A stretch of DNA of 18,256 nucleotides from a virus. Its lineage: Duplodnaviria > Heunggongvirae > Uroviricota > Caudoviricetes. The notes under the pieces are model-generated. The model had not been told where the DNA came from. It ran no database searches and saw only the letters and a program-made list of their open reading frames with translations. Location: positions 1 through 18,256 of IMG/VR virus record IMGVR_UViG_2778261299_000001, one strand, 5' to 3'. Each line of letters starts with the position of its first letter. The first letter of the stretch is position 1. Below are positions 1 to 16,869 of this stretch, in pieces. The position numbers and the translations under genes are program-made.

Positions 1-13
1 CATTCCTATCAAT

Positions 14-790
14 TTGGAGGAATTACGCTCTTATAATAAAGAAGCTATGGAGTTAAAAGAAAAGATTAATAAATCAATGTTTAATCTTAGTGTCTTAGAA
101 GAAAAAGGACGTGATATTTTAGATAAAATGACACAACAAAATGTCGAAGCAGCAAAATATCTAGAAATGTGTGAGCAGGCTATTAGAGCATCGACATCTA
201 AAGGTTTAGCCGGTGCTTTTGAAATCAAGGCTAATAAATTAAATAATAGTATCCAACTATGGGTTTTGGGATTGGCAAGTGCACTGGCGACGGGGGGGTA
301 CGTGGGTTTTGAAAGGCTCAAGGTTTTATCTGATGTGCTAAACAATGCAAATCCAAATGCAGTAGTTATTGTTACTCAGTTACTTCTTTCAGTGTTCAGT
401 ATAGGAGCTCCGTTATGGTTTGCATGGCTCTCTACAAAACAAATAAATCAAAGATTTAAATTGGCAGAGGATTATGCTTTTAAGGCTTCAGTAGCGAAGG
501 CTTACGAAGGCTATCGAAATGAAGCAAGTAAGGTATCTAATGGAGAATTTGAAAGGCGTTTATTTGATTCGGCATTGAGTCGTCTCGAAGAAGCACCTTT
601 GCGCTTTGTGAAGGATGATGACCATGCAACCCCTTGGAATGAGTTGTTAAATTCAAAAGCATTCAATAAGTTCCTTGACGCTTCTGTTGAAAATGTGAAT
701 TTTGTTAAAGGGATTATTAGCAAGAAAACAGGTGGGGCGAGAATGGCTAGTAATGATTCAGCTATTATTCCAGAAAAAAAAGTTGAATGA
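14..790 (+). CDS. hypothetical two-transmembrane-helix protein; candidate accessory, defence or superinfection-exclusion effector; true start uncertain and possibly upstream of window
   Basis: ORF of 258 codons ending at TAA 788-790. The frame is open from position 2, so the listed TTG at 14 is only the first possible start; the first ATG is at 47. Translation shows a charged, helix-prone N-terminal part, two hydrophobic segments (LWVLGLASALATGGYVGF and AVVIVTQLLLSVFSIGAPLWFAWL) separated by a short polar loop, then a charged C-terminal tail. AT-rich codon usage unlike the phage backbone. No motif I can assign to a known family. Confidence 0.6.
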   Translation: MEELRSYNKEAMELKEKINKSMFNLSVLEEKGRDILDKMTQQNVEAAKYLEMCEQAIRASTSKGLAGAFEIKANKLNNSIQLWVLGLASALATGGYVGFERLKVLSDVLNNANPNAVVIVTQLLLSVFSIGAPLWFAWLSTKQINQRFKLAEDYAFKASVAKAYEGYRNEASKVSNGEFERRLFDSALSRLEEAPLRFVKDDDHATPWNELLNSKAFNKFLDASVENVNFVKGIISKKTGGARMASNDSAIIPEKKVE

Positions 791-873
791 CAGAAGGATA
801 ATAATTAAGGGATGTCAGTCAACATGGTAATTTCTTGGTGTTGATTGTTTTATTTATCAAAAACATTTTAAGT

Positions 874-907
874 TAGTCTGATCTTCGCGTTCGGTAGGAT
901 CAGACTA
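874..907. terminator. perfect 10-bp inverted repeat (tagtctgatc ... gatcagacta) with 14-nt loop between the convergent cargo gene and Q; possible bidirectional terminator
   Basis: Read directly: 874-883 is the exact reverse complement of 898-907. On the minus strand a U-rich run (UGUUUUUG) follows a few nt after the stem. There is no clean U-tract on the plus side, so the terminator call is tentative. Confidence 0.3.
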
Positions 908-947
908 CTAAATTAACGATATGATTTCATTGATTACGAATGGTTAA

Positions 948-2018
948 TTAAGTTGTAGGGATAGTAATCGAAAGATTACTATCTTCAATACCTAGTTTAT
1001 AAGGCTCAAACATAATTACTTTTTCTCCAAGCCACTCGTTAAGCTCTGTCATTCGTTTTTGTAGCGGGGTCAACTCATTGCGCACAAAGACTTTACTAGC
1101 TTTACCTGCATCTCCAAAACCGCCGATGTTCTGGGGAATTATCCCCATCATTTGCGGCGGTACGCGGTGTGCCGCCATCATGTCATCCCGACTCACGTTT
1201 TTGATGTTCAAAAACTCATCCTTCGCCGCCACCTCTGACAACGGGATGATCTGAAGCCCGTCCTTTTTGCCGTTAGGCGAGTACATAAACAGGTTGCGGA
1301 AGTTGCCAGGGCCTTTGGCGCTTTTCATCGCATTGCGGAGGTTGTTCACATCCTCCTGGTTCTGCGCGGCATCGGTCATGTACATGATGAAGCCTGCATG
1401 ACTGCCGTTAATGTAATACTTCCGGCGGAACAGCGTGGCGGACTCGTTGAGCAGGGCTGACGGAATGGCAGAAAGATAACCGGGCAGGCCGTAGATCTCC
1501 TGGTTGATGTCCGGTTCCATCAGATGAAAGATGCTGCCTTTCGTGAACTGATATGGCTGCGTGGTCATACCGTATTGCACAAACCAGTAGGTATCCAGGT
1601 CTAACCCGCGTCGGGTGTATTTTGCCAGGGCAGGTTCAAGGGCGATAACTTCACCGAAGCGGTTCGTGCGTTTCTCCAGGTAGGCGTTACCAAATACCAG
1701 ATAGTCCTGCACAAAACGTGAAAAAGCCTGCTGGCTGAGCAGCGGGTGAGGGATGTAGGTACTGGTCAGAATGTTGCATTTTACTGCAATCGGGGAGCTG
1801 TGATGCACGGCAGCGCGGAAGGTGCGTGCCAGTCCGTCAAAACTGACGGGTGGCTCATACCAGCGATCCGTCTGTACGCATTCCACATAGTCCAGCAGTT
1901 CGCGGCGGTCCAGTACAGGAATGGGATCACCAAAGCTGAAAGCTTCGGCTGAAGTTTGATTTTTATGCTGGCTCTGTTTCGTCGCCGCAGCGCGGTTTTT
2001 CTTACTCTTTCCCATCAA
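948..2018 (-). CDS. Q: phage portal (capsid portal vertex) protein, P2 gpQ-like
   Basis: 356-codon ORF on the minus strand, immediately downstream of and overlapping the large terminase gene (P stop and Q start overlap at 2015-2018), as in P2. Size close to P2 gpQ. The 3' ~100 nt are AT-rich. Confidence 0.85.
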   Translation of the reverse strand: MMGKSKKNRAAATKQSQHKNQTSAEAFSFGDPIPVLDRRELLDYVECVQTDRWYEPPVSFDGLARTFRAAVHHSSPIAVKCNILTSTYIPHPLLSQQAFSRFVQDYLVFGNAYLEKRTNRFGEVIALEPALAKYTRRGLDLDTYWFVQYGMTTQPYQFTKGSIFHLMEPDINQEIYGLPGYLSAIPSALLNESATLFRRKYYINGSHAGFIMYMTDAAQNQEDVNNLRNAMKSAKGPGNFRNLFMYSPNGKKDGLQIIPLSEVAAKDEFLNIKNVSRDDMMAAHRVPPQMMGIIPQNIGGFGDAGKASKVFVRNELTPLQKRMTELNEWLGEKVIMFEPYKLGIEDSNLSITIPTT

Positions 2019-3781
2019 AAAATCTCCACAATATTGCTGGTATTGGCGGACTCGCCCTGCAGCGGTTCGTTAAACAGTGCGTGCATTGTTGCCCAGGCCA
2101 GATCGGCGTGGCTGGCTTCTTCGCTGCGGCTGGCTTCATAGGTCGGGCGGTTGCCGCTGGCGGTGGTGGCGCGACGGATAGCCATGAATGACTGCGCAAT
2201 GTCGGTGTGCCCGGCGTCAAACTCCAGACGGCGGTGGCTGATAATGTCGTAGGCCTTGAGTACCAGGGCGTTTTTAACGTTGGGGTTGTAGACAAACTCC
2301 CGGACGGCAGGAAAAAACGCTTTCACGTTCTCGTAAACCCCGTGACCAACGCCGGTTGAGTCGATACCGATATAGGTCACGTTGTACTGTTCGGTCAGTT
2401 TTTTGATGGCGTCAGCCTGGGCGCGGAAGTCCATCCCGCGCCACTGGTGACGCTCAAGAATGCGGAACTTACCACCCGGCACGGCTGGCGGTGCCACCAC
2501 CACGCATCCGGCGCTGTCGCCGTTTTGCGTGCCTTTTGCCGGGTCATAACCGATCCACACTTCGCGCCAGCCAAACGGGCGCAGCGCCAGTGCATGAAAG
2601 TCGGTCCAGACTTCCCAACTGTCCACCATGCACGCCTGCAGCTCGCTGAGCGGAAACACGGACGCGAGATCGTCCACAAACTCGCACATCAGCAGGTTCT
2701 GGTATTCGTCCGGGCTGTACTCCATGCGTAGCTGGTCGAGGTCGAACAGGTTACAGCCGCCGCGCACCGCATCTTCCACGGTGACTATCTGGCGGTATTG
2801 CCCGTCTGCGCACAGCAGGCCGGGGGCCAGATTGCTGTGGGACAGGTCGATGTCCACCTTATCGGCTTTGTTGCGCCCACGGTTGAACAGCGCACCGGAC
2901 CAGAACGGATAAGCACTGTGTGTCAGACTGGATGGCGTGGAAAAATAGGTTTGTCGCCATTTTTTGTGAATAGCCATACCGGAAGCCACTTTGCGCAGCT
3001 CCTGGAATTTTGGTATCCAGAAATATTCATCCAGATACAGGTTGCCGTGATAACTCTGGGCCGTGCGGGCATTGGTGCCGAGGAAATACAGTGTGGCCCC
3101 GTTGGGAAGCACCATCGGATCGCCTTTCAGCTCCACCTCTACTTCTTTGGCAAAGTCGATGATGTACTGTTTGAATACGTGGGCCTGTGCCTTACTGGCA
3201 GAAAGGAAAATCTGGTTACGTCCGGTCAGCAGGGCGTCAATCAGGGCTTCACGGGCAAAATAGAAGGTCGCGCCGATCTGGCGTGACTTCAGCAGGTTGC
3301 GGATGCGGTTGGTTTTTCCGGCTTCCCACCAGTGGCGCTGGTAGTTGAACATGGAGGAATGGAAGATTTCTTCCAGCTTCTCAATCTGTTCATCGGTGAA
3401 AACATTCTTTTCCGGCTGACGGCGTGGGCCTTTGTTGCGGTTGGCGACGTTAGGGTTTAAGTCGGCTTCGTTGCCACCATTGTTAAACTTGCCGATCCGC
3501 GCGTGGCGTTCCGACTGGCGCGCCAGCAGGTCAATCTCTTTGAAATCTTTCCCTTCTTTGTGCTCCTTCATAATGAGCTGGCAATAGCGTGCGGCGGTGG
3601 TGAGCTGCATCTGATCCAGCGGCCCATAATCACCCCACTTGTCGCGTTTTTTCCAGCTGTGAACAGTTGCAACTTTCTCGCCCAGCATTTCAGCAATGCG
3701 GGCTACGCGGTATCCCTGAAAGTACAGCAGCATGGCCTGCCGACGGGGATCGAGATCTGCGGGTGTCAGTGTGGTGTTCAT
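2015..3781 (-). CDS. P: terminase large (ATPase) subunit, P2 gpP-like
   Basis: 588-codon ORF, divergent from O across a 142-bp promoter region. Size and position match P2 gpP. Confidence 0.9.
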   Translation of the reverse strand: MNTTLTPADLDPRRQAMLLYFQGYRVARIAEMLGEKVATVHSWKKRDKWGDYGPLDQMQLTTAARYCQLIMKEHKEGKDFKEIDLLARQSERHARIGKFNNGGNEADLNPNVANRNKGPRRQPEKNVFTDEQIEKLEEIFHSSMFNYQRHWWEAGKTNRIRNLLKSRQIGATFYFAREALIDALLTGRNQIFLSASKAQAHVFKQYIIDFAKEVEVELKGDPMVLPNGATLYFLGTNARTAQSYHGNLYLDEYFWIPKFQELRKVASGMAIHKKWRQTYFSTPSSLTHSAYPFWSGALFNRGRNKADKVDIDLSHSNLAPGLLCADGQYRQIVTVEDAVRGGCNLFDLDQLRMEYSPDEYQNLLMCEFVDDLASVFPLSELQACMVDSWEVWTDFHALALRPFGWREVWIGYDPAKGTQNGDSAGCVVVAPPAVPGGKFRILERHQWRGMDFRAQADAIKKLTEQYNVTYIGIDSTGVGHGVYENVKAFFPAVREFVYNPNVKNALVLKAYDIISHRRLEFDAGHTDIAQSFMAIRRATTASGNRPTYEASRSEEASHADLAWATMHALFNEPLQGESANTSNIVEIF

Positions 3782-3827
3782 GGCACAAACCTACAGCCTT
3801 GAATGAAGGCTTTCCCCGCCTGCGGTT

Positions 3828-3845
3828 TGTGTGGTTGTCGGTACA
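3828..3845. promoter_or_regulatory. TGT-N12-ACA dyad (Ogr/Delta-type activator box) of the late promoter upstream of O, in the divergent P/O control region
   Basis: Read directly: TGT at 3828-3830, 12 nt, ACA at 3843-3845. A -10-like CATAAG lies about 40 nt downstream (3884-3889) and the O start codon is at 3924. P2 late promoters carry this dyad centred near -55. Confidence 0.6.
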
Positions 3846-3923
3846 AATACCGCGCATTGTTTCACTGCCCCCATCACCGCAACCATAAGGCTCCAGTAAG
3901 TTTTTTCTAACGGAGCACGGCTC

Positions 3924-4757
3924 ATGACAGTGAAAGCAAAGCGTTTTCGCATCGGGGTGGAAGGTGCCACTACCGACGGACGCGAAATCCAGCGTGAATG
4001 GTTGGAACAGATGGCAGCCAGCTACAACCCGGCGGTGTATACCGCGCTGATTAACCTTGAGCACATCAAGTCTTATCTGCCGGACAGCACCTTTAACCGC
4101 TACGGCAAGGTGACGGCGCTGTTTGCTGAAGAAATCACGGAAGGTCCGCTGGCAGGCAAGATGGCGCTGTATGCCGACGTTGAGCCAACGGAGTCCCTGG
4201 TGGAACTGGTGAAAAAAGGCCAGAAATTATTCACCTCTATGGAAGTCAGCCCGAAGTTCGCTGATACGGGCAAAGCCTACCTGGTTGGCCTGGCTGCCAC
4301 TGATGATCCTGCCAGTCTGGGTACGGAAATGCTGACATTCAGCGCCAGTGCAGCCCATAACCCGCTGGCAAACCGCAAGCAGAATCCCGCCAATCTTTTT
4401 ACCGCTGCAGAGGAAACGGTGATCGAACTGGAAGAAGTCCAGGATGACAAACCGTCCCTGTTTGCCCGCGTCACGGCGTTGTTTACCAAAAAAGAGCAGT
4501 CCGATGACGCCCGGTTCGCTGATGTGCATAAGGCCGTGGAGCTGGTCGCCACTGAGCAGCAGAACCTGAGCGCACGCACCGAAAAATCCCTGTCTGAGCA
4601 GGAAGAACGCCTGTCTGAACTGGAGACTGCTCTGCAGGAGCAGCAAACCGCCTTTAACGAACTGGTGAATAAGTTGAGTCATGAAGACAGCCGCCAGGAC
4701 TACCGCCAGCGTGCAACAGGCGGTAACGCCCCCGCTGACACTCTGACCAATTGCTGA
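3924..4757 (+). CDS. O: capsid scaffolding protein, P2 gpO-like
   Basis: 277-codon ORF, first gene of the rightward head operon. GGAG 10 nt upstream of the ATG. N-terminal RFRIGVEGATTDGREI resembles the P2 gpO N-terminus as I recall it. Acidic, helix-rich C-terminal half typical of scaffolds. Confidence 0.8.
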   Translation: MTVKAKRFRIGVEGATTDGREIQREWLEQMAASYNPAVYTALINLEHIKSYLPDSTFNRYGKVTALFAEEITEGPLAGKMALYADVEPTESLVELVKKGQKLFTSMEVSPKFADTGKAYLVGLAATDDPASLGTEMLTFSASAAHNPLANRKQNPANLFTAAEETVIELEEVQDDKPSLFARVTALFTKKEQSDDARFADVHKAVELVATEQQNLSARTEKSLSEQEERLSELETALQEQQTAFNELVNKLSHEDSRQDYRQRATGGNAPADTLTNC

Positions 4758-4773
4758 TGGAGCACAAAACCTG

Positions 4774-5832
4774 ATGAAGAAGAATACCCGCTTTGCTTTT
4801 AACGCTTACCTGCAGCAGCTGGCGCGTCTGAACGGTGTGGCAGTTGAAGAACTGTCCAGCAAGTTCACCGTGGAGCCGTCTGTACAGCAGACGCTGGAAG
4901 ACCAGATCCAGCAGTCTGCCGCTTTCCTGACGCTGATTAACGTCACGCCAGTGACTGAGCAGTCCGGTCAGCTGCTGGGGTTGGGTGTTGGTAGCACCAT
5001 TGCCGGAACCACTGACACCACCGCGAAAGAGCGTGAACCTGTCGATCCTACGCTGATGGTCGATGTGGAATACAAATGCGAGCAGACCAACTTTGACACG
5101 GTACTGACCTACGCGAAGCTGGACCTGTGGGCGAAGTTTCAGGATTTCCAGGTGCGTATCCGTGACGCCATCGTGAAACGTCAGGCACTGGACCGCATCA
5201 TGATCGGCTTTAACGGCGTGAAGCGTGCGAAAACCTCCAACCGTAGCGAAAACCCGCTGCTGCAGGATGTGAACAAAGGCTGGCTGCAGAAAATCCGTGA
5301 GGATGCACCGGATCATGTCATGGGCAGCACCACCACGGGCGGTGAAACCACACCGGGCGCGGTGAAAGTCGGGAAAGGTGGCGAATATGCCAACCTGGAC
5401 GCCGTGGTGATGGATGCCGTCAATGAGCTTATCGACGTGGTCTACCAGGACGATGACGATCTGGTGGTGATTTGCGGCCGTGAACTGCTGTCTGACAAGT
5501 ATTTCCCGCTGGTCAACAAAGAGCAGGAAAACAGTGAAAAACTGGCTGCCGATATGATCATCAGTCAGAAGCGCATGGGGGGCCTGCAGGCCGTGCGTGC
5601 GCCGTTTTTCCCGCCGAATGCGCTGCTGATCACCCGTCTGGACAACCTGTCCATCTACTGGCAGGAAGACACCCGCCGCCGTTCAGTTATCGACAACCCG
5701 AAACGTGACCGGATTGAAAACTTTGAATCCGTTAACGAAGCCTATGTGGTTGAGGACTACCGCTGCGCAGCACTGGTGGAAAACATCCAGATTGGCGACT
5801 TCAGCGCCGTCGCAGTAGAAACCGGAGCGTAA
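4774..5832 (+). CDS. N: major capsid protein, P2 gpN-like
   Basis: 352-codon ORF directly after O; size and position match P2 gpN. Confidence 0.85.
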   Translation: MKKNTRFAFNAYLQQLARLNGVAVEELSSKFTVEPSVQQTLEDQIQQSAAFLTLINVTPVTEQSGQLLGLGVGSTIAGTTDTTAKEREPVDPTLMVDVEYKCEQTNFDTVLTYAKLDLWAKFQDFQVRIRDAIVKRQALDRIMIGFNGVKRAKTSNRSENPLLQDVNKGWLQKIREDAPDHVMGSTTTGGETTPGAVKVGKGGEYANLDAVVMDAVNELIDVVYQDDDDLVVICGRELLSDKYFPLVNKEQENSEKLAADMIISQKRMGGLQAVRAPFFPPNALLITRLDNLSIYWQEDTRRRSVIDNPKRDRIENFESVNEAYVVEDYRCAALVENIQIGDFSAVAVETGA

Positions 5833-5835
5833 TCC

Positions 5836-6486
5836 ATGAGCCTGAGTCCCGCACGGCAGCATCGCCTGCGCGTTCAGGCTGAACAGGCCGCCCGCGAGGG
5901 CGGCAGCGTTCGCCACGCGTCGGGCTATGACCTGATGCTGCTGCAACTGGCGGAAGACCGCCGCCGTCTCAAGGGCGTTCAGTCCACGGTCAAAAAAGCG
6001 GAAATCAAGGTGGAGCTGCTGCCGAAGTACGCCGCCTGGGCTGAGGGTGTACTGGCTGCCGGAGGCGCTCAACAGGATGACGTGCTGATGTACGTGATGC
6101 TGTGGCGCATTGATGCCGGAGATTATGCCGGGGCGCTGGAGATCGGGCGTCATGCCCTGCGTCATGGCTGGGTGATGCCGCTGGGTAACCGCAACGTGCA
6201 GACCGTGCTGGCAGAGGAAATGGCAGACGCTGCGCAGAGCGCAATGCTTGCCACTACCGGCTTTGATGCCGATCTGTTGCTGCAGACGCTGGAGCTGACA
6301 GACGGTCTGGATATGCCGGACCAGTCACGGGCGCGTCTGCATAAAGCGATTGGCACTGTCCTGAGTGAAAGTAATCCGGCTTCCGCCCTTAATCATCTCA
6401 ACCATGCGTTACAGCTCGATCCCCGCTGTGGCGTGAAAAAAGACAAACAGCAGCTGGAGCGCAGATTGCGCAATGACAGTCGCTGA
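5836..6486 (+). CDS. M: terminase small (endonuclease) subunit, P2 gpM-like
   Basis: 216-codon ORF starting 4 nt after the N stop. Arginine-rich N-terminus. Position matches P2 M. Confidence 0.75.
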   Translation: MSLSPARQHRLRVQAEQAAREGGSVRHASGYDLMLLQLAEDRRRLKGVQSTVKKAEIKVELLPKYAAWAEGVLAAGGAQQDDVLMYVMLWRIDAGDYAGALEIGRHALRHGWVMPLGNRNVQTVLAEEMADAAQSAMLATTGFDADLLLQTLELTDGLDMPDQSRARLHKAIGTVLSESNPASALNHLNHALQLDPRCGVKKDKQQLERRLRNDSR

Positions 6487-6581
6487 CAGAACGTGCCCCC
6501 GCGCACGGGCGGCACGGGGTGGCGAAAGGCACCGCCACATCAAAACCTCGTCCACCGCCCTCTATTTCAGGAGAAAGCAGC

Positions 6582-7046
6582 ATGAAGTTTGTTGCGCCAG
6601 AACAGGCACCGGAACAGGCGGAAATCATCAGAAATACGCCGTTCTGGCCTGATGTGGACCTGTCGGAGTTTCGCAGCGTGATGCGCACTGACGGCACGGT
6701 GACGCAGCCGCGTTTAAAGCAGGTTGCCCTGTCGGCAATTTCGGAGGTCAACGCAGAGCTGTATGAGTTTCGCAGACGCCAGCAGATGCTGGGGTATGCC
6801 TCGCTGGCAGAAGTTCCGGCGGAACAGCTGGACGGCAAAAGTGAGCGCATTCAGCACTATTTCAACGCGGTTTACTGCTGGGCACGCGCCATGCTCAATG
6901 AGCGTTATCAGGACTATGACGCCACAGCGTCTGGTGTGAAGCGAGGCGAGGAACTGGCGGAAGCAAGCGGTGATTTGTGGCGTGACGCCCGCTGGGCCAT
7001 CAGCCGGGTGCAGGATGCGCCGCACTGCACAGTGGAGCTTATCTGA
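6582..7046 (+). CDS. L: head completion/stabilisation protein, P2 gpL-like
   Basis: ORF in the L position. I prefer the ATG at 6582 (MKFVAPEQ...) because AGGAGA lies 8 nt upstream; an upstream GTG at 6519 is possible but sits inside GC-rich hairpins. Confidence 0.7.
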   Translation: MKFVAPEQAPEQAEIIRNTPFWPDVDLSEFRSVMRTDGTVTQPRLKQVALSAISEVNAELYEFRRRQQMLGYASLAEVPAEQLDGKSERIQHYFNAVYCWARAMLNERYQDYDATASGVKRGEELAEASGDLWRDARWAISRVQDAPHCTVELI

Positions 7047-7249
7047 TGAAAGTGCGTGCGTATCAGTATGACACGGTGGACGCGCTTTGCTGGCGTCATT
7101 ACGGGCGCACGCAGGGTGTCACGGAGCAGGTACTGAAGGCAAATCCGGGGCTTGCCGAATACGGCCCCTTTTTACCTCACGGGCTGCAGGTGGAGCTGCC
7201 GGACATACCGACAACCACCACCGTGCAGACCGTCCAGCTATGGGACTGA
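7046..7249 (+). CDS. X: tail protein X (small LysM-like virion protein), P2 gpX-like
   Basis: 67-codon ORF whose start overlaps the L stop (ATGA at 7043-7048). Size and position match P2 gpX. Confidence 0.7.
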   Translation: MKVRAYQYDTVDALCWRHYGRTQGVTEQVLKANPGLAEYGPFLPHGLQVELPDIPTTTTVQTVQLWD

Positions 7250-7252
7250 ATT

Positions 7253-7468
7253 ATGACGCTTGAGCGAATCAGCGCCTTTATCACGTACTGCATCGCCGTT
7301 GTCCTGGCCTGGCTGGGCGATTTGTCCATCAAGGATGCCTCAACGCTGGGCGGCCTGATGATTGGTGTGCTGATGCTGGCTATCAACTGGTACTACAAAC
7401 ACAAAGCCTACCAGCTTCTGCGCGACGGGCAGATCTCGCGGGAGGACTATGAATCCATCAATCGTTAA
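7253..7468 (+). CDS. small class II holin (pinholin-like)
   Basis: 71-codon ORF with two hydrophobic segments (ISAFITYCIAVVLAWLG and LGGLMIGVLMLAINWYY) and a charged C-terminal tail, immediately upstream of the endolysin gene. Shorter than the P2 Y holin as I recall it. Confidence 0.6.
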   Translation: MTLERISAFITYCIAVVLAWLGDLSIKDASTLGGLMIGVLMLAINWYYKHKAYQLLRDGQISREDYESINR

Positions 7469-7961
7469 ACGCTGCCTTGTCGGGACCGTGCTGGCTATTG
7501 CTGCCACGCTGCCGGGTTTTCAGCAGCTTCACACCTCCGTGGAGGGGCTGAAACTGATTGCCGATTACGAAGGCTGTCGTCTGCAGCCGTATCAGTGCAG
7601 CGCGGGTGTATGGACTGACGGCATTGGTAATACATCTGGCGTCATTCCCGGCAAAACCATTACGGAACGACAGGCAGCAGAAGGGCTTATCTCCAACGTG
7701 CTGCGTGTGGAGCGGTCACTGGAAAGGTGTGTGAAGCAACAGCCACCGCAGAAAGTGTATGACGCGGTGGTGTCATTTGCCTTCAACGTGGGGACAGGTA
7801 ATGCCTGCAGCTCCACGCTGGTGAAATTACTCAATCAGCGGCGCTGGGCGGATGCGTGCCGACAGTTGCCGCGCTGGGTTTATGTGAAAGGTGTGTTTAA
7901 TCAGGGGCTGGATAACCGCCGTGCGCGGGAGATGGCCTGGTGCTTACAGGGAGCAAACTGA
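7449..7961 (+). CDS. K: endolysin, lysozyme-like muramidase with N-terminal signal-anchor-release (SAR) segment
   Basis: 170-codon ORF. The N-terminus has a weakly hydrophobic Gly/Ala-rich stretch (LVGTVLAIAATLPG) followed by a lysozyme-like motif (DYEG..L.PY....GVWTDGIGNT) resembling T4/P1/P21 lysozymes. Confidence 0.8.
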   Translation: MNPSIVKRCLVGTVLAIAATLPGFQQLHTSVEGLKLIADYEGCRLQPYQCSAGVWTDGIGNTSGVIPGKTITERQAAEGLISNVLRVERSLERCVKQQPPQKVYDAVVSFAFNVGTGNACSSTLVKLLNQRRWADACRQLPRWVYVKGVFNQGLDNRRAREMAWCLQGAN

Positions 7962-7962
7962 A

Positions 7963-8340
7963 ATGAAAAAGAAATTAATCAGCGGGCTGTTTCTGATGTT
8001 ATGGATGGCGCTGTTAATCGAAGCAATGGTGTATCCGCAGGGGATTTTTCCGGTACTGGCAGCGTCCGGCGTTTGGGTAGCCTGTTTGCTGACATGGGCG
8101 GTAATTCCGGTAGCACTGGCTGCGTTAATTAAGAATGGCCCGCTCTGGCAGGAGTTGAGGGCATCTTTGCTGAAGACAATTACCCGAAAAGAAAACGTAT
8201 TTATCAGCTGGATGATGCGATTGCTGATTGTCGTCAGTCTCGCCTGGACGGGGTGGGCTATTACCCTGGTCTTTTATCTACTGACCGTTATTGCCTTCTG
8301 GATCACCCGTAATCAGATGGCTCAACAGGTAGCAGCATGA
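7963..8340 (+). CDS. lysA: LysA-like membrane protein (lysis timing accessory)
   Basis: ATG at 7963 with AGGGAG 9 nt upstream. Polytopic hydrophobic protein in the lysA position. Confidence 0.55.
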   Translation: MKKKLISGLFLMLWMALLIEAMVYPQGIFPVLAASGVWVACLLTWAVIPVALAALIKNGPLWQELRASLLKTITRKENVFISWMMRLLIVVSLAWTGWAITLVFYLLTVIAFWITRNQMAQQVAA

Positions 8341-8765
8341 ACCGGTTGCTGCTGGTTGTGCTGGCGTTATTACTGGCGGCGCTGGGCTGGCAGACGTGGC
8401 GGCTGGCTGATGCCAGCCAGACCATCAGCACGCAGGCAGACGAGCTGCAGAGCAAAAGCCAGGCACTGGCAAAGAGCAACAGCCAGCTTATCAGCCTGTC
8501 CATTCTGACTGAAACCAATAACCGGGAGCAGGCGCGGCTCTATGCCGAAGCAGAACAGACCAGCGCGCTGCTGAGACAACGACAACACCGGATCGAGGAA
8601 CTGAAACGTGAGAACGAGGATTTACGTCGCTGGGCTGATACTCCTTTGCCTGCTGACATTATCCGGCTGCGGGAACGTCCGGCACTCACCGGAGGTACGG
8701 CTTACCGTCAGTGGTTGTCCGCGAGTGACGCCGTGTCGGCTGGATCAGGCAACGCCGCGCACTAA
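8337..8765 (+). CDS. lysB: LysB, Rz-like inner-membrane spanin
   Basis: 142-codon ORF whose start overlaps the lysA stop. N-terminal TM segment (LLLVVLALLLAALGW), then coiled-coil-like charged region. Confidence 0.6.
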   Translation: MNRLLLVVLALLLAALGWQTWRLADASQTISTQADELQSKSQALAKSNSQLISLSILTETNNREQARLYAEAEQTSALLRQRQHRIEELKRENEDLRRWADTPLPADIIRLRERPALTGGTAYRQWLSASDAVSAGSGNAAH

Positions 8766-8898
8766 TGGTGATCTGAACGCGTTGCTGGATGAAACGGAGG
8801 CTGCCTGGGCGGTCTGTGCAGACAAAGTGGACATGATTATTGCGTGTCAGGAGCGAAACAGTGAACAAACCACAATCCCTGCGCCACGCCCTCAATAA
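8608..8898 (+). CDS. lysC: LysC, Rz1-like outer-membrane lipoprotein spanin, embedded in and extending past lysB in another frame
   Basis: ORF in a different frame from lysB with a lipoprotein-type signal and lipobox (LLCLLTLSG-C). GTG start at 8608 is a guess; the real start may be further downstream. Confidence 0.45.
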   Translation: MRTRIYVAGLILLCLLTLSGCGNVRHSPEVRLTVSGCPRVTPCRLDQATPRTNGDLNALLDETEAAWAVCADKVDMIIACQERNSEQTTIPAPRPQ

Positions 8899-9292
8899 AG
8901 CGGTGCCTTATGTCCGCAATAACCCGGACAAACTGCATCTGTTTGTGGATAACGGTTCGCTGGTTGCCACGGGGGCCAGCTCCATGTCGTGGGAGTACCG
9001 TTACACCCTGAACGCGGTGATTGAGGATTTCAGCGGCGACCAGAATCTGCTGATGGCCCCGGTTTTGCTGTGGCTGAGGGATAACCAGCCCGATGCCATC
9101 AATAACCCGGCGTTACGGGAAAAACTATTCACCTTTGAGGTGGATATTCTGCGCAACGATGTCTGTGATATCAGCCTGAACCTGCAACTGACGGAGCGTG
9201 TGCTGGTCAGCACTGACGGCAGTGTGTCGAGCGTTGAAGCTGTAGCGGAACCTGATGAACCTGAAGAAATGTGGACGGTGAAACGTGGCTGA
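8861..9292 (+). CDS. R: tail completion protein, P2 gpR-like
   Basis: ORF in the R position. I prefer GTG 8861 (VNKPQSLRHAL...) because AGGAG lies 7 nt upstream; the ORF track start at 8840 is a TTG. Confidence 0.7.
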   Translation: MNKPQSLRHALNKAVPYVRNNPDKLHLFVDNGSLVATGASSMSWEYRYTLNAVIEDFSGDQNLLMAPVLLWLRDNQPDAINNPALREKLFTFEVDILRNDVCDISLNLQLTERVLVSTDGSVSSVEAVAEPDEPEEMWTVKRG

Positions 9293-9731
9293 ACTGCAGA
9301 AAGTGGACGACTGGCTGAGTGCCTTGCTGGCGAATCTGGAACCAGCCGCAAGAAGCCGCATGATGCGCCAGCTGGCGCAGGAACTGCGCCGGACACAGCA
9401 GCAGAATATCAGAATGCAGCGCAATCCAGATGGCAGCAGTTATGAACCTCGACGGGTAACAGCACGCAGTAAAAAGGGGCGCATCAAACGTCAGATGTTT
9501 GCAAAGCTGCGCACCACAAAATACCTGAAAACTGCCGCCAGCGCCGACTCTGCCAGCGTACAGTTTGAAGGCAAAGTGCAGCGTATTGCCCGTGTTCACC
9601 ATTACGGCCTGCGTGATCGCGTCAGTCGCAAAGGACCGGAGGTCCGTTACGCAGAGCGCCGCCTGCTGGGTGTAAATGATGATGTTGAGGCAATGACCCG
9701 CGACATGATTCTGCAATGGCTGGCGGGGTGA
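9285..9731 (+). CDS. S: tail completion / virion morphogenesis protein, P2 gpS-like
   Basis: 148-codon ORF with GTG start overlapping the R stop. Size and position match P2 gpS. Confidence 0.7.
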   Translation: MAELQKVDDWLSALLANLEPAARSRMMRQLAQELRRTQQQNIRMQRNPDGSSYEPRRVTARSKKGRIKRQMFAKLRTTKYLKTAASADSASVQFEGKVQRIARVHHYGLRDRVSRKGPEVRYAERRLLGVNDDVEAMTRDMILQWLAG

Positions 9732-9735
9732 TCTT

Positions 9736-9753
9736 TGTATCAGCACTGATACA
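9736..9753. promoter_or_regulatory. TGT-N12-ACA dyad (Ogr-type box) of the late promoter upstream of V
   Basis: Read directly: TGT 9736-9738, 12 nt, ACA 9751-9753, in the 68-bp S-V intergenic gap. Spacing to the V start codon (9800) is short, so the exact transcription start is uncertain. Confidence 0.5.
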
Positions 9754-9799
9754 AGTTGCAGCACTGCCGCCTTTCTTCCCCTGATGGCAACCTTTCCCT

Positions 9800-10378
9800 A
9801 TGAACGCACAATTAACCGAAATCATGCGCCTTATCACCAACCTGATTCGCACAGGGGTAGTCACCGAAGTGGACAGGGAAAACTGGCTTTGCCGGGTGAA
9901 AACGGGCGAGCTTGAAACCAACTGGATTAGCTGGCTGACGCTGCGTGCCGGGAATGCCCGCACATGGTGGCGACCATCGGAAGGTGAGCAGGTGGTGCTG
10001 CTGAGTCTGGGCGGCAATCTGGAAACCGCCTTTGCGCTGCCCGCTGTCTATTCGAATCAGTTCGCACCACCGTCGACGTCGGCGGACGCCTGCGTGACAG
10101 AACATCCTGACGGTGGCTGGTTTGAATACGAACCCGCCACCGGGCGCTGGTATGTCAGGGGCATCAAATCAATGGTCATTGAGGCCGCTGACAACATCAC
10201 CATGAAAACCAGTGAGTTTGTACTGGAGGCTGACCGCACGCGCATTAACAGCGAAGTGGTGATCAATGGTGGCGTTACCCAGGGCGGCGGAGCGATGAGT
10301 TCTAACGGGATCGTGGTTGATGCGCATCAGCATACTGGCGTCCTGAAAGGCGGCGATACAACCGGAGGCCCGGTATGA
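9800..10378 (+). CDS. V: baseplate spike/assembly protein, P2 gpV-like
   Basis: 192-codon ORF, first gene after the S-V promoter gap. Gly-rich C-terminus typical of gpV-like spikes. Confidence 0.8.
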   Translation: MNAQLTEIMRLITNLIRTGVVTEVDRENWLCRVKTGELETNWISWLTLRAGNARTWWRPSEGEQVVLLSLGGNLETAFALPAVYSNQFAPPSTSADACVTEHPDGGWFEYEPATGRWYVRGIKSMVIEAADNITMKTSEFVLEADRTRINSEVVINGGVTQGGGAMSSNGIVVDAHQHTGVLKGGDTTGGPV

Positions 10379-10734
10379 CGCTTTATAGCGGGATGAACAA
10401 TACCAGCGGTAAAGCCATTACTGATATTGACCATCTGCGTCAGTCGGTGCGGGACATTCTACTGACACCGCAGGGTAGCCGCATTGCCCGTCGTGAATAT
10501 GGTTCCCTGCTGTCGACACTGATAGACCAGCCACAAAATCCGGCATTACGCCTGCAGGTCATGTCGGCAGTGTATGTGGCGCTGAGTCGCTGGGAGCCAC
10601 GGCTGACGCTGGATTCCATCACCATTAAAAGCAATTTTGACGGTTCAATGGTGGTGGGGCTGACCGGGCGGCGTAATAACGGTGTGCCTGTTTCCCTTTC
10701 CGTATCAACAGGAGCAGAGAATGGCAGTGATTGA
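10375..10734 (+). CDS. W: baseplate wedge protein, P2 gpW-like
   Basis: 119-codon ORF overlapping the V stop (ATGA). Size and position match P2 gpW. Confidence 0.8.
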   Translation: MTLYSGMNNTSGKAITDIDHLRQSVRDILLTPQGSRIARREYGSLLSTLIDQPQNPALRLQVMSAVYVALSRWEPRLTLDSITIKSNFDGSMVVGLTGRRNNGVPVSLSVSTGAENGSD

Positions 10735-11629
10735 CCTTTCGCAGTTGCCTGCGCCGCAGATTGTGGATGTGCCGGACTTTGAGACGCTGCTTGCCGAACG
10801 CAAGGCAGAATTTGTGGCGCTTCATCCGAAAGATGAGCAGGAAGCAGTAATGCGTACGCTGGAGCTTGAATCTGAACCCGTCACCAAATTGCTGCAGGAG
10901 AACGCTTACCGTGAGTTGCTTCTGCGCCAGCGCATTAACGAAGCCGCGCAGGCTGTGATGGTGGCTTACGCGATGGGCGGCGATCTTGACCAGCTCGCTG
11001 CCAACTACAACGTGACACGCCTGACGGTGACGCCTGCTGATAATGATGCTGTGCCGCCCGTTGCAGCTGTGATGGAAAGCGATGAAGCGTTACGCCTGCG
11101 TGTGCCTGCAGCCTTTGAAGGGCTTTCTGTTGCGGGGCCAACTGCAGCTTATGAATTTCATGCCCGAAGCGCCGACGGTCGGGTGGCGGATGCCAGTGCA
11201 ACCAGCCCGGCACCTGCAGAGGTGGTACTGACTGTCCTGAGTCGTGAAGGCGACGGAACAGCAGAAAAAGACTTGCTGGATGTGGTGGAGAAAGCCCTGA
11301 ACAGTGAGAACGTCCGCCCGGTGGCTGACCGTCTGACGGTTCGCAGCGCAGAAATCATCCCGTACCGTGTGGAAGCTACCATTTTTCTTTATCCGGGACC
11401 GGAAGCAGAGCCGGTAATGGCAGCGGCAAAAGTCAGCCTGCAGAGGTACATCGCCAGTCAGACGCGGCTGGGTCGGGATATTCGCCGTAGCGCCATTTTT
11501 GCCGCCCTGCATGTTGAGGGTGTGCAGCGTGTGGAACTGGCTTCTCCGCTGGCGGATGTGGTCCTGAACAAAACACAGGCGGCATCATGTACGCAGTGGA
11601 GCGTAACCAACGGAGGAACGGATGAATAG
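10721..11629 (+). CDS. J: baseplate assembly protein, P2 gpJ-like
   Basis: ATG at 10721 with AGGAG 6 nt upstream gives 302 codons, matching P2 gpJ length as I recall it. The ORF track start at 10682 is a GTG. Confidence 0.85.
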   Translation: MAVIDLSQLPAPQIVDVPDFETLLAERKAEFVALHPKDEQEAVMRTLELESEPVTKLLQENAYRELLLRQRINEAAQAVMVAYAMGGDLDQLAANYNVTRLTVTPADNDAVPPVAAVMESDEALRLRVPAAFEGLSVAGPTAAYEFHARSADGRVADASATSPAPAEVVLTVLSREGDGTAEKDLLDVVEKALNSENVRPVADRLTVRSAEIIPYRVEATIFLYPGPEAEPVMAAAKVSLQRYIASQTRLGRDIRRSAIFAALHVEGVQRVELASPLADVVLNKTQAASCTQWSVTNGGTDE

Positions 11630-12227
11630 TCTGCTGCCACCGGGTTCAACGCCACTGGAGCGCCGACTGGCACAAACCTGCAGCGGGATTTCTGATTTGC
11701 AGGTGCCGCTACGTGACTTGTGGAATCCGGCGACCTGTCCGGTCAGTTTCCTGCCTTATCTCGCCTGGGCGTTCTCTGTGGATCGCTGGGACGAGGGCTG
11801 GACAGAAAGCGTCAAGCGCCAGGTGGTGAAGGATGCTTTTTATATTCATCAGCATAAAGGAACCACCAGTGCCGTGCGGCGGGTGGTGGAGCCGTTCGGC
11901 TTCCTGATCCGCATTATTGAGTGGTGGCAGACCGGAGAAACACCGGGCACGTTTCGCCTGGATATCGGCGTGCAGGACCAGGGCATCACTGAAGATACCT
12001 ATCTGGAACTTGAGCGACTGATAAGCGATGCCAAACCATGTAGCCGTCACATGATCGGCATGTCTATCAATCTGCAGACCAGCGGCCCGCATTGGGTGGG
12101 AGCCGCCAGCTATCTTGGCGAAGAAATCACGATCTATCCGTATATCAACGAAACAATTATTTCCGGCGGCACCGCGCATGAAGGCGGGGCGGTCCATGTT
12201 ATTGACACAATGAGAGTGAATCCATGA
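11622..12227 (+). CDS. I: baseplate/tail protein, P2 gpI-like
   Basis: 201-codon ORF overlapping the J stop, followed directly by H. Confidence 0.75.
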   Translation: MNSLLPPGSTPLERRLAQTCSGISDLQVPLRDLWNPATCPVSFLPYLAWAFSVDRWDEGWTESVKRQVVKDAFYIHQHKGTTSAVRRVVEPFGFLIRIIEWWQTGETPGTFRLDIGVQDQGITEDTYLELERLISDAKPCSRHMIGMSINLQTSGPHWVGAASYLGEEITIYPYINETIISGGTAHEGGAVHVIDTMRVNP

Positions 12228-13810
12228 GCACAAAATTTTATACCCTGCTGACGGATATTGGCGCGGCGAAACTTGCCAGCGCCGCCGCGCTCGGTGTGCC
12301 TTTAAAAATTACCCATATGGCAGTCGGCGATGGCGGCGGAATATTGCCAACGCCGGACGCAAAGCAGACAGCACTGGTAAATGAGAAACGCCGGGCTGCG
12401 CTGAATATGCTCTATATCGACCCGCAGAACAGCAGCCAGATTATTGCCGAACAGGTGATCCCTGAAAATGAGGGCGGTTGGTGGATCCGTGAAGTGGGCC
12501 TGTTTGATGAGTCCGGGGCATTGATTGCCGTGGGTAACTGCCCGGAAAGCTATAAGCCGCAACTGGCTGAAGGCAGCGGGCGTACCCAGACCGTGCGCAT
12601 GGTGCTGATTACCAGCAGCACGGACAATATCACCCTGAAAATCGACCCTGCCGTCGTGCTGGCAACCCGCAAGTATGTGGATGACAAGGTACTGGAGCTG
12701 AAGGTGTACGTGGATGACCTGATGGCAAAACATCTTATCGCACAGGACCCACATTCACAGTACGCGCCAAAAGCCAGCCCGACATTTAGCGGAACCCCCA
12801 AAGCGCCAACGCCAGCGGCGGGGAATAATACCACGCAGGTTGCGACCACTGCGTTTGTACAGGCGGCACTGACGGCCCTTATTAATGGTGCGCCAGCCAC
12901 GCTGGACACGTTGAAAGAAATAGCCGCAGCCATTAACAATGATCCGAATTTCAGTACCACCATTAACAATGCGCTGGCACTGAAAGCACCGTTGTCGAGT
13001 CCGGCACTCACCGGAACGCCAACAGCCCCCACGGCGGCGCAGTCGGTCAACAATACACAGATTGCCACTACGGCTTTTGTGAAATCGGCGATTGCAGGAA
13101 TGGTGGGTTCTGCACCTGCTGCACTGGATACACTGAACGAACTGGCGGCGGCACTGGGAAATGATCCGAACTTTGCCACGACAATGCTTAATGCGCTGGC
13201 AGGTAAACAACCGCTGGACAATACGCTTACCAATTTGAGTGGAAAGGATGTGGCTGGTCTTCTCGCATACCTTGGTTTGGGAGAAGGCTCAGCATTACCT
13301 GTTGGGGTGCCTGTTCCGTGGCCTTCAGCCACTCCGCCAACAGGCTGGCTGAAATGCAATGGTGCGGCTTTTTCTGCTGAAGAATACCCGGAACTGGCAA
13401 AGGCTTACCCGACAAATAAATTGCCTGATTTACGCGGTGAATTTATTCGTGGATGGGATGATGGGCGCGGGGTGGATGCGGGGCGAGCCTTGTTAAGTCT
13501 TCAGGATGACTCTTTTGAAGCTCACAGACATGAGTCCTTTTTTTACGCGGGTATTTCACGCAATGAAACACCATTAAAAAATCTTCCAAGTTCAGACGAG
13601 ATGCTGACTTTAAGTTCCACAACTAATGCCTTGTCCCCGGACAGTATTGATGCCACCAATTCGTTAATTGGTAATGATGATTACAACTGTCTGATTGAAG
13701 GAAATAAAAATAACAAACGAACGGCAACGGGGTTGAGTACCAGTATTGTCGGTGCAGCAGAGACACGCCCACGTAATATTTCATTTAATTACATTGTGAG
13801 GGCTGCATGA
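12224..13810 (+). CDS. H: tail fibre protein, P2 gpH-like, with conserved N-terminal part, internal repeats and a C-terminal collar-like receptor-binding tip in the current orientation
   Basis: 528-codon ORF. Two diverged copies of an ~55-aa motif in the middle. C-terminal segment (WLKCNGAAFSAEEYPELAKAYP..LPDLRGEFIRGWDDGRGVDAGR...H.H) resembles phage tail-collar domains. An invertase crossover site lies inside the gene at 13260-13285. Confidence 0.85.
   Translation: MSTKFYTLLTDIGAAKLASAAALGVPLKITHMAVGDGGGILPTPDAKQTALVNEKRRAALNMLYIDPQNSSQIIAEQVIPENEGGWWIREVGLFDESGALIAVGNCPESYKPQLAEGSGRTQTVRMVLITSSTDNITLKIDPAVVLATRKYVDDKVLELKVYVDDLMAKHLIAQDPHSQYAPKASPTFSGTPKAPTPAAGNNTTQVATTAFVQAALTALINGAPATLDTLKEIAAAINNDPNFSTTINNALALKAPLSSPALTGTPTAPTAAQSVNNTQIATTAFVKSAIAGMVGSAPAALDTLNELAAALGNDPNFATTMLNALAGKQPLDNTLTNLSGKDVAGLLAYLGLGEGSALPVGVPVPWPSATPPTGWLKCNGAAFSAEEYPELAKAYPTNKLPDLRGEFIRGWDDGRGVDAGRALLSLQDDSFEAHRHESFFYAGISRNETPLKNLPSSDEMLTLSSTTNALSPDSIDATNSLIGNDDYNCLIEGNKNNKRTATGLSTSIVGAAETRPRNISFNYIVRAA
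13260..13285. repeat. left 26-bp invertase crossover site (gix/hix-like), inside H at the constant/variable boundary
   Basis: TTCTCGCATACC-TT-GGTTTGGGAGAA is an imperfect palindrome of two 12-bp half-sites of the type TTCTC..AAACC around a central TT. Its right half is the exact reverse complement of the left half of the site at 14898-14923. Confidence 0.75.
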
Positions 13811-14415
13811 TGTATAACGCTATCTTAAATAATAAATTTATTGCCACAAAGGCAGGAGAGATTACCGTTTATAACTATGACAGTGAGACACGGGAGTATA
13901 TTTCTGCATCAATTGAATATCTTGCTGTGGGTGTCGGTATCCCCGCATATTCCTGTTTAGATGCTCCTGGCACACATAAGGCTGGTTATGCAATCTGCCG
14001 TTCTGCAGATTTTAACTCATGGGAATATGTGCCAGACCATCGCGGTGAAATCGTCTTTAGCACCGAAACAGGAGAATCAAAAGAAATCACAGCTCCGGGT
14101 GATTACCCTGATAATACAACCACTATCGCCCCGTTAACACCATACGATAAATGGGATGGTGAGAAATGGGTGACGGATACCGAGGCACAGCATAGCGCCG
14201 CAGTAGATGCAGCAGAAGCACAACGCCAGTCGCTGATTGATACTGCAATGGCTTCCATCAGTCTGATTCAACTGAAATTACAGGCCGGACGGAATCTGAC
14301 GCAGGCAGAAACCAGCCGACTTAACACGGTGCTGGATTACATTGACGCGGTGACGGCAACAGATACCAGCACCGCGCCTGATATTATTTGGCCTGTATTC
14401 CCTGAGACTGATTAA
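13807..14415 (+). CDS. G: tail fibre assembly chaperone (Tfa; P2 gpG / Mu U-like)
   Basis: 202-codon ORF overlapping the H stop (ATGA). C-terminus TDTSTAPDIIWPVFPETD closely resembles the conserved C-terminus of lambda Tfa as I recall it. Confidence 0.85.
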   Translation: MMYNAILNNKFIATKAGEITVYNYDSETREYISASIEYLAVGVGIPAYSCLDAPGTHKAGYAICRSADFNSWEYVPDHRGEIVFSTETGESKEITAPGDYPDNTTTIAPLTPYDKWDGEKWVTDTEAQHSAAVDAAEAQRQSLIDTAMASISLIQLKLQAGRNLTQAETSRLNTVLDYIDAVTATDTSTAPDIIWPVFPETD

Positions 14416-14644
14416 CCTCAATTAGTATTGGTTCGCCTTTCTCATTAATTGTTAGCTCCATGCCCTGAGGAATTTCTGTCATAGTAAAAAACCAATTGTC
14501 CTCCGGTAATTCAATAGCCCCGGTCACGTCATGAAGACCGGGGATTACTTCAGTCAAAGTAACTGGATTAAACAGGCGCACAATAAACCCTCCAGGAAAA
14601 AGCATTTGATGATGGTCTGCCGTCGTACATCTGGCAGCGGGCAT
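14384..14644 (-). CDS. possible alternative tail-fibre assembly chaperone (G'-like) or decayed remnant
   Basis: Only minus-strand ORF between the G stop and the alternative fibre-tip cassette. At 86 codons or fewer it is short, none of its candidate ATGs has a convincing ribosome-binding site, and it lacks the Tfa C-terminal motif seen in G. Confidence 0.3.
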   Translation of the reverse strand: MPAARCTTADHHQMLFPGGFIVRLFNPVTLTEVIPGLHDVTGAIELPEDNWFFTMTEIPQGMELTINEKGEPILIEVNQSQGIQAK

Positions 14645-14897
14645 AAAAGCCGGTATTTGTTACCTGATCATCCACGATCATTGAAACGTGAACATTATTA
14701 GGTGTGCTCTCGTAATCCGTTCTTATTCTTTCCGCGATACTGATAAAACGTGAAAGTTTAGGCAGTGCAATTGGGTAAACAACTTTAGCCAGTCCATTAT
14801 CATTAGATCCACCGGTTCCAAATACTTCTATTGCACCATCTGACCAGCGTATCCATGCACCATTGGCATTAGCTCCTCGCTGAATGACATATCTGGC
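14568..14897 (-). CDS. promoterless alternative tail-fibre C-terminal cassette (H'v); expressed only after inversion, as an in-frame fusion to the constant part of H
   Basis: The minus-strand frame runs through the right crossover site encoding GLGE, the same residues and frame as LGLGE at the left site in H. After inversion H would continue as ...GLGEARYVIQRGANANGAWIRW... for about 108 codons to the stop at 14568-14570. Confidence 0.65.
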   Translation of the reverse strand, partial: ARYVIQRGANANGAWIRWSDGAIEVFGTGGSNDNGLAKVVYPIALPKLSRFISIAERIRTDYESTPNNVHVSMIVDDQVTNTGFYARCQMYDGRPSSNAFSWRVYCAPV

Positions 14898-14923: not shown

Positions 14924-14978
14924 TGCAGAGATAATGGCTAACTGGCATCATCCACGGTTTTTATTCAGGGGATTGATC

Positions 14979-15545: not shown

Positions 15546-15593
15546 ATCAGCATTATTTTGATTATCCCTGCAAGTAGACAAATACCGTCATTT

Positions 15594-16860: not shown

Positions 16861-16869
16861 GGGGACAAC

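Follow-up and report, generated by a model that had tools for sequence, protein, structure and literature searches.

The closest described counterparts of the locus studied here are the old and tin genes of phage P2, which are carried between genes A and Q near cos, and Z/fun, which is carried between the tail-fibre assembly gene G and the sheath gene FI. The A-Q hotspot was defined by Rousset et al. (2022), who listed 169 systems, and old-tin as well as three of the eight further P2-hotspot systems assayed were protective against phages. G-FI (Z/fun) was described as the second P2 defence hotspot by Vassallo et al. (2022). In addition, the cargo of cos-adjacent P2/P4 hotspots includes transmembrane (TM) proteins, such as the 2-TM protein of the P4 gene gop (gop-beta-cII) and single-gene membrane abortive infection (Abi) proteins, for which killing or arrest of the infected cell is proposed. 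A further group for comparison consists of the SLATT-type effectors (SMODS- and SLOG-associated 2TM domains) and other TM effectors of CBASS, Pycsar, retron and TIR systems, including the 2TM-1TM-TIR system of the P2-like phage AC1. In our study, a stretch of 18,256 nucleotides from a virus of the Caudoviricetes (IMG/VR record IMGVR_UViG_2778261299_000001, positions 1 to 18,256; the window) was analysed. It begins inside a gene that is convergent with portal gene Q and is called the cargo gene below.

The part of the cargo gene in the window encodes the C-terminal 262 residues of a predicted inner-membrane protein of 431 residues. The evidence points to a stand-alone gene that forms a unit of its own, with a terminator-like hairpin and cos between it and the other cargo. 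Judged from its sequence and position, the gene, which a P2/186-like prophage carries in the interval from cos to the 3' end of Q, is a candidate anti-phage cargo, namely a single-gene membrane determinant of abortive infection or exclusion, and the likelihood of this is placed slightly below even.

Like old, tin and fun, the cargo gene is AT-rich, swapped and dispensable, consists of a single gene whose expression does not depend on the phage operons, and is found at the same sites, its family occupying both P2 hotspots. In sequence it is unrelated to Old (ATPase/TOPRIM nuclease), to Tin and to Fun, and those proteins, unlike this one, have demonstrated phenotypes. Gop is also unrelated in sequence; it has 133 amino acids (aa) and acts with beta and cII, whereas the cargo protein has 431 aa and stands alone. 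The cargo protein resembles the SLATT-type effectors in that its two TM helices lie close together, a cytoplasmic helical region is conserved, the gene is carried by mobile elements, and disruption of the membrane is its presumed role. Two TM helices with a cytoplasmic helical extension are present here, but this arrangement is generic and insufficient for SLATT membership. Unlike the SLATT-type effectors, the cargo protein gave no match to a PADLOC TM effector at E ≤ 1, had no SMODS, TIR or cyclase partner nearby, and carries its TM hairpin in the C-terminal half, after a cytoplasmic region of 250 residues. A SLATT-like fold had been guessed in the preliminary description, and the guess found no significant support in Pfam, PADLOC or Foldseek. 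SLATT was absent from the Pfam matches of the query at E ≤ 1 and from the 25 listed of the 91 families matched by 50 family members at E ≤ 0.1, and two giant-virus SLATT proteins appeared in the Foldseek search of BFVD at E 0.19 and 0.42 only. Moreover, neighbouring genes matched 132 Pfam families, and the 25 commonest of these included no SMODS, SLOG or TIR-type domain.

The cargo gene between cos and portal gene Q

The plus-strand frame contains no stop codon from nt 2 until the stop codon at 788-790, and the start of the gene lies upstream of the window. The E. coli protein P0001 (431 aa) matched the whole fragment; the search gave 100% identity, and one difference (D173N) was seen by eye. 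Furthermore, the fragment covered profile positions 170-423 of 433 in PHROG 34659 (E 6e-133). Judged from these sequence matches, the true start of the gene is about 507 nt upstream of the window and the gene has 431 codons in all. Since the window holds codons 170-431 of the 431, the TTG at position 14 is internal and is not the start. The open reading frame (ORF) at 14-790 on the plus strand, described at first, is therefore real, convergent with Q and open at the window edge, but its 258 codons from TTG 14 are not the whole gene.

The guanine-plus-cytosine (G+C) content was 0.35-0.40 over positions 1-900 (300-nt windows), 0.25-0.38 from 760 to about 1040 (60-nt windows) and 0.51-0.62 from about 1050 on. 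The abrupt fall in G+C that had been noticed was thus measured as 0.25-0.40 over positions 1 to about 1040 against 0.51-0.62 downstream. The cargo gene as a whole has a G+C content of 0.35, compared with 0.51-0.54 in the flanking phage genes, and is horizontally acquired (0.35 against about 0.52 for the phage). The AT-rich tract continues about 80-100 nt beyond position 947, so that the last part of Q (948 to about 1040) is also AT-rich. In addition, the C-terminus of Q carries a 14-residue extension, GIEDSNLSITIPTT, that the portal protein (341 aa) of prophage L003 does not have, and the DNA matches of other P2-like phages start only at window positions 998-1072. Because of this AT-rich tail, the extension and the late start of the phage matches, the junction of the cassette swap is placed inside the 3' end of Q.

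The gene in its full length was found in L002, an E. coli contig with 96.8% identity to the window across 10.8 kb. The genes of the L002 prophage follow in the order integrase, 314-aa ORF, 186-type CI, CP76, Fil, Dam methylase and gpA, and after gpA come a 62-aa ORF, a DinI-like gene, a pair of 71-aa and 280-aa genes, a cos-like site, the 431-aa cargo gene and portal gene Q. A complete virion set and a lysis cassette (holin, lysozyme, LysA, LysC) are present elsewhere in this prophage. The 280-aa gene and the 431-aa gene are separated by a gap of 340 bp; a GC-rich hairpin followed by TTTTG stands directly after the 280-aa gene, and the cos-like sequence AAAGCGGGCAGGCGTGGCGGGGATACGAG lies in the gap at about 9778. 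The same cos-like site was found about 100 bp upstream of a 454-aa allele in five other prophages (L003-L007), where the order was again cos, cargo gene, portal gene. Gene A, a DinI-like gene, in some cases cargo, the cos-like site, the gene and Q follow each other in L002, L003-L007 and L094-L097. The location in the P2-type, cos-proximal A-Q variable locus, as first proposed, was in agreement with the gene order in these related contigs and with the same hotspot as defined by Rousset et al. (2022). With cos on one side and the 3' end of Q on the other, the cargo gene is placed at the left end of the linear genome. It is thus on the Q side of cos, whereas the other hotspot cargo of L002-L007 sits on the A side.

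The core of the cos-like site, GGCGTGGCGGGGATACGAG, is at 9768-9796 in L002 and at about 7898 in L003-L007. It differs from the P2 sequence GGCGAGGCGGGGAAAGCAC at more than three positions, chiefly in the 3' half, and the flanking context CATGAAAAC...AAAGCGGGC is conserved. A search of L002 for the P2 cos consensus with up to three mismatches gave no match, and the variant GGCGTGGCGGGGATACGAG was found by eye and by pattern.

The protein had been catalogued before. Entry #102 in Table S5B of Rousset et al. (2022) is the cargo protein with one residue different, recorded there as a one-protein system without Pfam domain and with '2 TM', and has 32 occurrences among 18,150 P2 loci; the 454-aa allele (WP_089647510) is given in Table S5A as 'hypothetical'. 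The word 'new' in the preliminary description was therefore too strong. Its peptide motifs and accessions were not found in the text and supplements of Vassallo 2022, DefensePredictor 2026 and Mordret 2025, and no mention of phrog_34659 was found in the literature. The family is still unnamed; it belongs to the prophage-hotspot cargo, with the locus and the candidate status that had been described.

Alleles and neighbours of a stand-alone gene

The alleles of the cargo gene were found at several kinds of sites. The P0003 allele (83% identical) is the sole cargo between A and Q in L094-L097. The P0110 allele, the 454-aa form of L003-L007, whose C-terminal part is 52% identical, is preceded by a 225-aa gene or by a DUF8087 gene in antisense orientation, or has no gene upstream. 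The P0008 allele (433 aa, 76% identical) stands alone at the G-FI (Z/fun) site in L008-L011. In Yersinia, an allele lies next to an OLD-family ATPase/TOPRIM nuclease and RelE/MqsA in a P4-like element that also encodes a D5-type primase. Furthermore, the temperate Providencia phage PSTCR8lys possessed a 466-aa homologue exactly between the Q antiterminator and the holin, and a Dyadobacter copy lies in an island flanked by an integrase, IS21 and a SIR2_2 gene. Lone genes of the family were found repeatedly, at four different cargo sites in temperate phages and in satellites.

The neighbours were also compared in 78 loci of different species. The upstream gap had a median of 291 bp, and same-strand neighbours within 50 bp were rare (7 of 74 upstream and 7 of 73 downstream). 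In an all-against-all clustering of 677 neighbours, no family occurred in more than five of the 78 loci. As no neighbour is conserved across the 78 species, the gene is regarded as stand-alone and not as the effector of an upstream operon. The preliminary description had considered the opposite, that the protein is the membrane effector of a multi-gene system with partners upstream of the window. Such partners could be sought in the 71-aa and 280-aa pair, which lies 340 bp upstream on the same strand in L002, and the pairing of a sensor with a TM effector is common in known systems. In L002, however, the hairpin and T-run and then cos stand between the pair and the cargo gene. Moreover, alleles occur without other cargo, with different neighbours or at other sites, and #102 was curated as a one-protein system by Rousset et al. 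(2022). A multi-gene system is accordingly considered very improbable.

The pair itself (L002 8603-9660) lies across cos and makes up another cargo unit of this hotspot that is likewise uncharacterised. Its two genes overlap by 1 nt, have a G+C content of 0.41 and end at the hairpin and T-run before cos. No Pfam or PADLOC family was found for the pair, apart from one weak match below the cutoff to a membrane-protein domain.

The 433-aa allele (P0008 cluster) is often split into an ORF of 216 aa plus one of 174 or 222 aa, including copies in Shigella sonnei, which suggests recurrent or clonally spread pseudogenisation. Megablast found no counterpart of window positions 1-1100 in 5,426 complete E. 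coli genomes, and only one of them carried the 454-aa allele. This genome, E. coli NCTC 13148 (L101, NZ_OZ510750.1), is the only complete RefSeq E. coli genome with that allele. In it, at 4410-6211, IS1B interrupts the portal gene adjacent to the allele; the prophage is defective and the cargo gene intact.

The membrane core and the possible roles of the protein

The family was found in 222 of 185,579 species genomes. Among the carriers are Gamma-, Beta- and Alphaproteobacteria, Bacteroidota, Verrucomicrobiota, Leptospira, Acidobacteriota and Nitrospirota, with a few further ones among metagenome-assembled genomes of Bacillota and Patescibacteria. When 1.84 billion proteins were searched with the conserved module, 1,085 cluster representatives were retrieved, of which 366 had E ≤ 1e-30; almost all were 410-470 aa long, with the module at about 226-395. 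Such rare and patchy spread across phyla is typical of mobile accessory genes.

Identity to P0001 was determined for 50 aligned members from several phyla. The median was 24% for residues 1-128, 26% for residues 129-225 and 9% for the tail, compared with 59% (minimum 57%) for residues 226-395. The motifs TSKGLAGAF, ahead of the first TM helix, EDY..K...KAYEGY..EA, just after the second TM helix (TM2), and LF..AL.R.EE.PLR, further on, are invariant or near-invariant. At the level of sequence, the membrane-proximal core is thus conserved across phyla, whereas the predicted cytoplasmic N-terminal domain diverges quickly; used alone as a query, this domain retrieved only two fragments of the same protein.

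The architecture is uniform throughout the family, at about 430 aa: an N-terminal helical bundle and a coiled-coil stalk are followed by a membrane hairpin of two helices and by juxtamembrane helices that are conserved. The two hydrophobic helices described at first were recovered in the Kyte-Doolittle profile (means of 1.27 and 1.9-2.1), as a helical hairpin in the AlphaFold2 model and in the '2 TM' entry of Rousset et al. (2022). The AlphaFold2 model was all-helical, with a mean predicted local distance difference test score (pLDDT) of 73.7 and a predicted template modelling score (pTM) of 0.34. In the model, residues 1-125 form a compact bundle (pLDDT about 90) and residues 130-235 form helical hairpins (the coiled-coil stalk); a very long helix (174-282) leads into the first TM helix (TM1), and a second long helix (289-347) leaves TM2. 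One face of TM1 is lined by small residues in a glycine-zipper pattern, G259-x3-A263-x3-G267-x3-G271. In the 50 members these positions were occupied by the same residue in 49 (G259), 44 (A263), 48 (G267) and 50 (G271) cases, and W256, L260 and L264 were invariant. The cytoplasmic half of TM2 is nearly invariant (LS..S.GAPLWFAW, with L298, S299, S302 and G304-A305-P306-L307-W308-F309-A310-W311) and is followed by the invariant TKQ (T314-K315-Q316). The flanking charges fit a topology with both termini in the cytoplasm (N-in/C-in) and a periplasmic loop of 16 residues, which we infer for the protein.

As had been stated at first, no recognised family was found for this protein. Neither the fragment nor the full-length protein gave an above-threshold match in Pfam or NCBIfam, and PADLOC-DB 2.0.0 gave 0 matches. 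DUF6824 (E 0.005-0.016) and assorted coiled-coil families were regarded as noise, none of them recurring across the 50 members, for which the Pfam scan gave scattered coiled-coil families only. A profile search of the PDB sequences retrieved only coiled-coil proteins (E ≥ 0.018). With Foldseek, the matches in the PDB had E ≥ 0.46 (AhlB at E 1.5), and those in BFVD had E ≥ 0.009 and TM-scores below 0.3. The resemblance of the modelled fold to alpha-pore-forming toxins (ClyA/Hbl/AhlB/YaxB) and to four-helix-bundle executioners (the coiled-coil (CC) domain of the plant CC-NLR Rx, MLKL) may serve as leads only. A holin or lysis protein was rejected: no holin match was found in Pfam, the lysis genes of the prophage are elsewhere, and the Providencia homologue lies upstream of a separate holin.

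The cargo gene is acquired, independent and dispensable, its family occurs at four kinds of sites, and its core is conserved while the N-terminus diverges; for these reasons it is regarded as a self-contained, traded accessory membrane protein. Its most likely role would be the protection of the lysogen against other phages, which is held with a little less than even confidence. In the lysogen, the N-terminal bundle and the coiled coil would sense, or be released by, an infection cue. TM1, with its glycine zipper, and the GAPLWFAW segment of TM2 might then oligomerise into a channel or membrane lesion, by which the membrane potential would collapse and the cell be depolarised. The infection by a superinfecting phage would be aborted in this way, in the manner of tin, old and fun of P2 at the same sites. 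A wider proposal is that the cargo protein is the founding member of an unnamed, phylum-spanning family of single-protein membrane immune effectors, in which a quickly evolving cytoplasmic sensor, made of the helical bundle and the coiled coil, would gate a near-invariant glycine-zipper 2TM channel, and whose gene temperate phages and satellites would shuttle between at least four hotspots; this proposal is tentative and stands clearly below an even chance. A 2026 NAR study found six of eight randomly picked unknown loci of the P4 hotspot to be protective, which raises the prior for unknown cargo; this result concerns P4 loci only and not the cargo gene.

The conservation of the core also bears on superinfection exclusion at the inner membrane, in which the entry of the phage genome would be blocked without cell death, in the manner of P22 SieA, T4 Imm or HK97 gp15. 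The cargo protein is a prophage-encoded, predicted inner-membrane protein at a site of lysogenic conversion, and its TM hairpin and juxtamembrane region are conserved, both of which fit this explanation. On the other hand, about 85% of the protein is predicted to be cytoplasmic, with only 16 residues in the periplasmic loop. Furthermore, Enterobacteria, Bacteroidota and Verrucomicrobiota are infected by unrelated phages, yet the core keeps 57-59% identity across them, and this fits an effector directed at the host better. Superinfection exclusion (Sie) proteins are usually small and taxon-restricted, which also counts against this explanation, and exclusion of this kind is considered rather improbable.

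The same conservation is hard to reconcile with a selfish toxin or addiction-type element or with a decaying remnant without function. Split copies of the 433-aa allele are common (more than 300 contigs), and one copy is carried by a prophage with an IS1-disrupted portal gene, both of which would fit such an element. The full-length copies, however, are conserved in many phyla with near-invariant motifs, indicating purifying selection on a working protein, and no antitoxin-like partner is conserved. A selfish or decaying gene is accordingly considered very improbable as well.

Several points weigh against an anti-phage role. Protein #102 was outside the set of cloned systems in Rousset et al. 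(2022), and about one quarter of the P2 hotspots in that study hold non-defence cargo (plasmid partition, cytolethal distending toxin). The neighbours of the homologues outside the enterobacterial phages were mixed, and an enrichment in defence islands was not demonstrated there. A domain scan of the first 148 of 287 neighbour ORFs (about 40 species loci, two genes on each side) detected a few integrases, type I restriction-modification genes and type IV restriction endonuclease-like genes, and also housekeeping genes such as ribonucleotide reductase, UvrB and aconitase, counts for which there is no background rate. TM1 is only marginally hydrophobic (mean 1.27). In addition, the proposed mechanism relies on the association of glycine zippers with homo-oligomeric channels, which is general knowledge.

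Some of these points favour a non-defence moron, which would benefit the lysogen or the phage through tolerance of envelope stress, through virulence or colonisation, or by modulating the phage's own lysis or DNA ejection. P2 hotspots also hold par systems and the cytolethal distending toxin, many non-enterobacterial homologues adjoin housekeeping genes, the Providencia site between Q and holin is also that of toxins and other morons, and PADLOC gave no match. Nevertheless, the prophage already possesses a complete lysis cassette and virion set, and the gene is dispensable, the allele occurring in only 32 of 18,150 P2 loci and being absent from most related prophages. Moreover, an OLD nuclease, SIR2_2 and RelE/MqsA are co-located with it in other elements, and the fast evolution of the N-terminal domain may point to conflict as its driver. 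A role as a moron of this kind is therefore considered unlikely, although it keeps an appreciable share of the probability.

If the cargo protein is anti-phage, it would represent a compact one-gene, membrane-acting immunity family without recognisable domain, extending from Enterobacteria to Bacteroidota, Verrucomicrobiota and Leptospira. The same cargo would then move among both P2 hotspots, P4-like satellites and the lambdoid Q-S moron site, and the contrast between the conserved effector core and the variable N-terminal region would make sensor-swap and escape-mutant work straightforward. If it is not, the case would illustrate that position in a hotspot alone does not establish defence.

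Features of the window and other variable positions

The coordinates of the features are given in Table 1. The remaining part of the window is a P2/186-type virion module (terminase, scaffold, capsid and others after Q). In the spacer between the cargo gene and Q (791-947), no cos site, canonical terminator or Rfam match was found, and promoter and terminator scans of positions 1-1100 gave nothing above the shuffled expectation. The inverted repeat in the spacer fails the terminator consensus; from its sequence and position, it may be a candidate bidirectional transcription stop.

Table 1. Coordinates of the cargo gene and adjacent features (window positions unless L002 is named).
Feature	Position	Strand	Remark
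Cargo gene, 3' 61% (codons 170-431 and stop)	1-790	+	Translation, PHROG 34659, P0001, L002 alignment
Conserved core module, residues 226-395	170-679	+	Median identity 59% across 50 members
Core contents: pre-TM TSKGLAGAF; TM hairpin; juxtamembrane KQI.QRF.LAEDY.FKASVAKAYEGYR.EA; LF..AL.RLEE.PLR	within 170-679	+	
TM1, residues 252-272	248-310	+	Kyte-Doolittle mean 1.27, moderately hydrophobic
TM2, residues 289-312	359-430	+	Kyte-Doolittle mean 1.9-2.1, strongly hydrophobic
AT-rich spacer, 157 nt, G+C 0.25-0.37	791-947	.	Separates the cargo gene from Q, which converge here
Perfect 10-bp inverted repeat TAGTCTGATC / GATCAGACTA, 14-nt loop	874-907	.	Between the convergent genes
Portal gene Q	948-2018	-	PF04860 match; convergent with the cargo gene
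Terminase P	2015-3781	-	Next gene after portal Q
Cargo gene in L002	L002 10001-11296		Window alignment begins at L002 10507

A third variable position of these prophages lies between integrase and CI, where L002 carries the 314-aa ORF (697-1641, minus strand). No family was found for this ORF, which gave a weak PADLOC match to LeoC (E 0.011) and weak matches to membrane DUFs; in other prophages the position is held by an AAA_15 (OLD-like) gene or a SNIPE/T5orf172 gene.

The second P2 hotspot, from the tail-fibre assembly gene G to the sheath gene FI, is at 13200-15687 in the window and contains ORFs at 13807-14415 (+), 14568-14951 (-) and 14934-15545 (+). A serine invertase is encoded there, with matches to PF00239 Resolvase (E 4.5e-52) and HTH_7, and next to it lies an antisense 126-aa ORF without family, in a stretch of lower G+C content (0.41-0.49). 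The content of this hotspot resembles a tail-fibre inversion switch of the Gin/Cin type more than a gene for defence.

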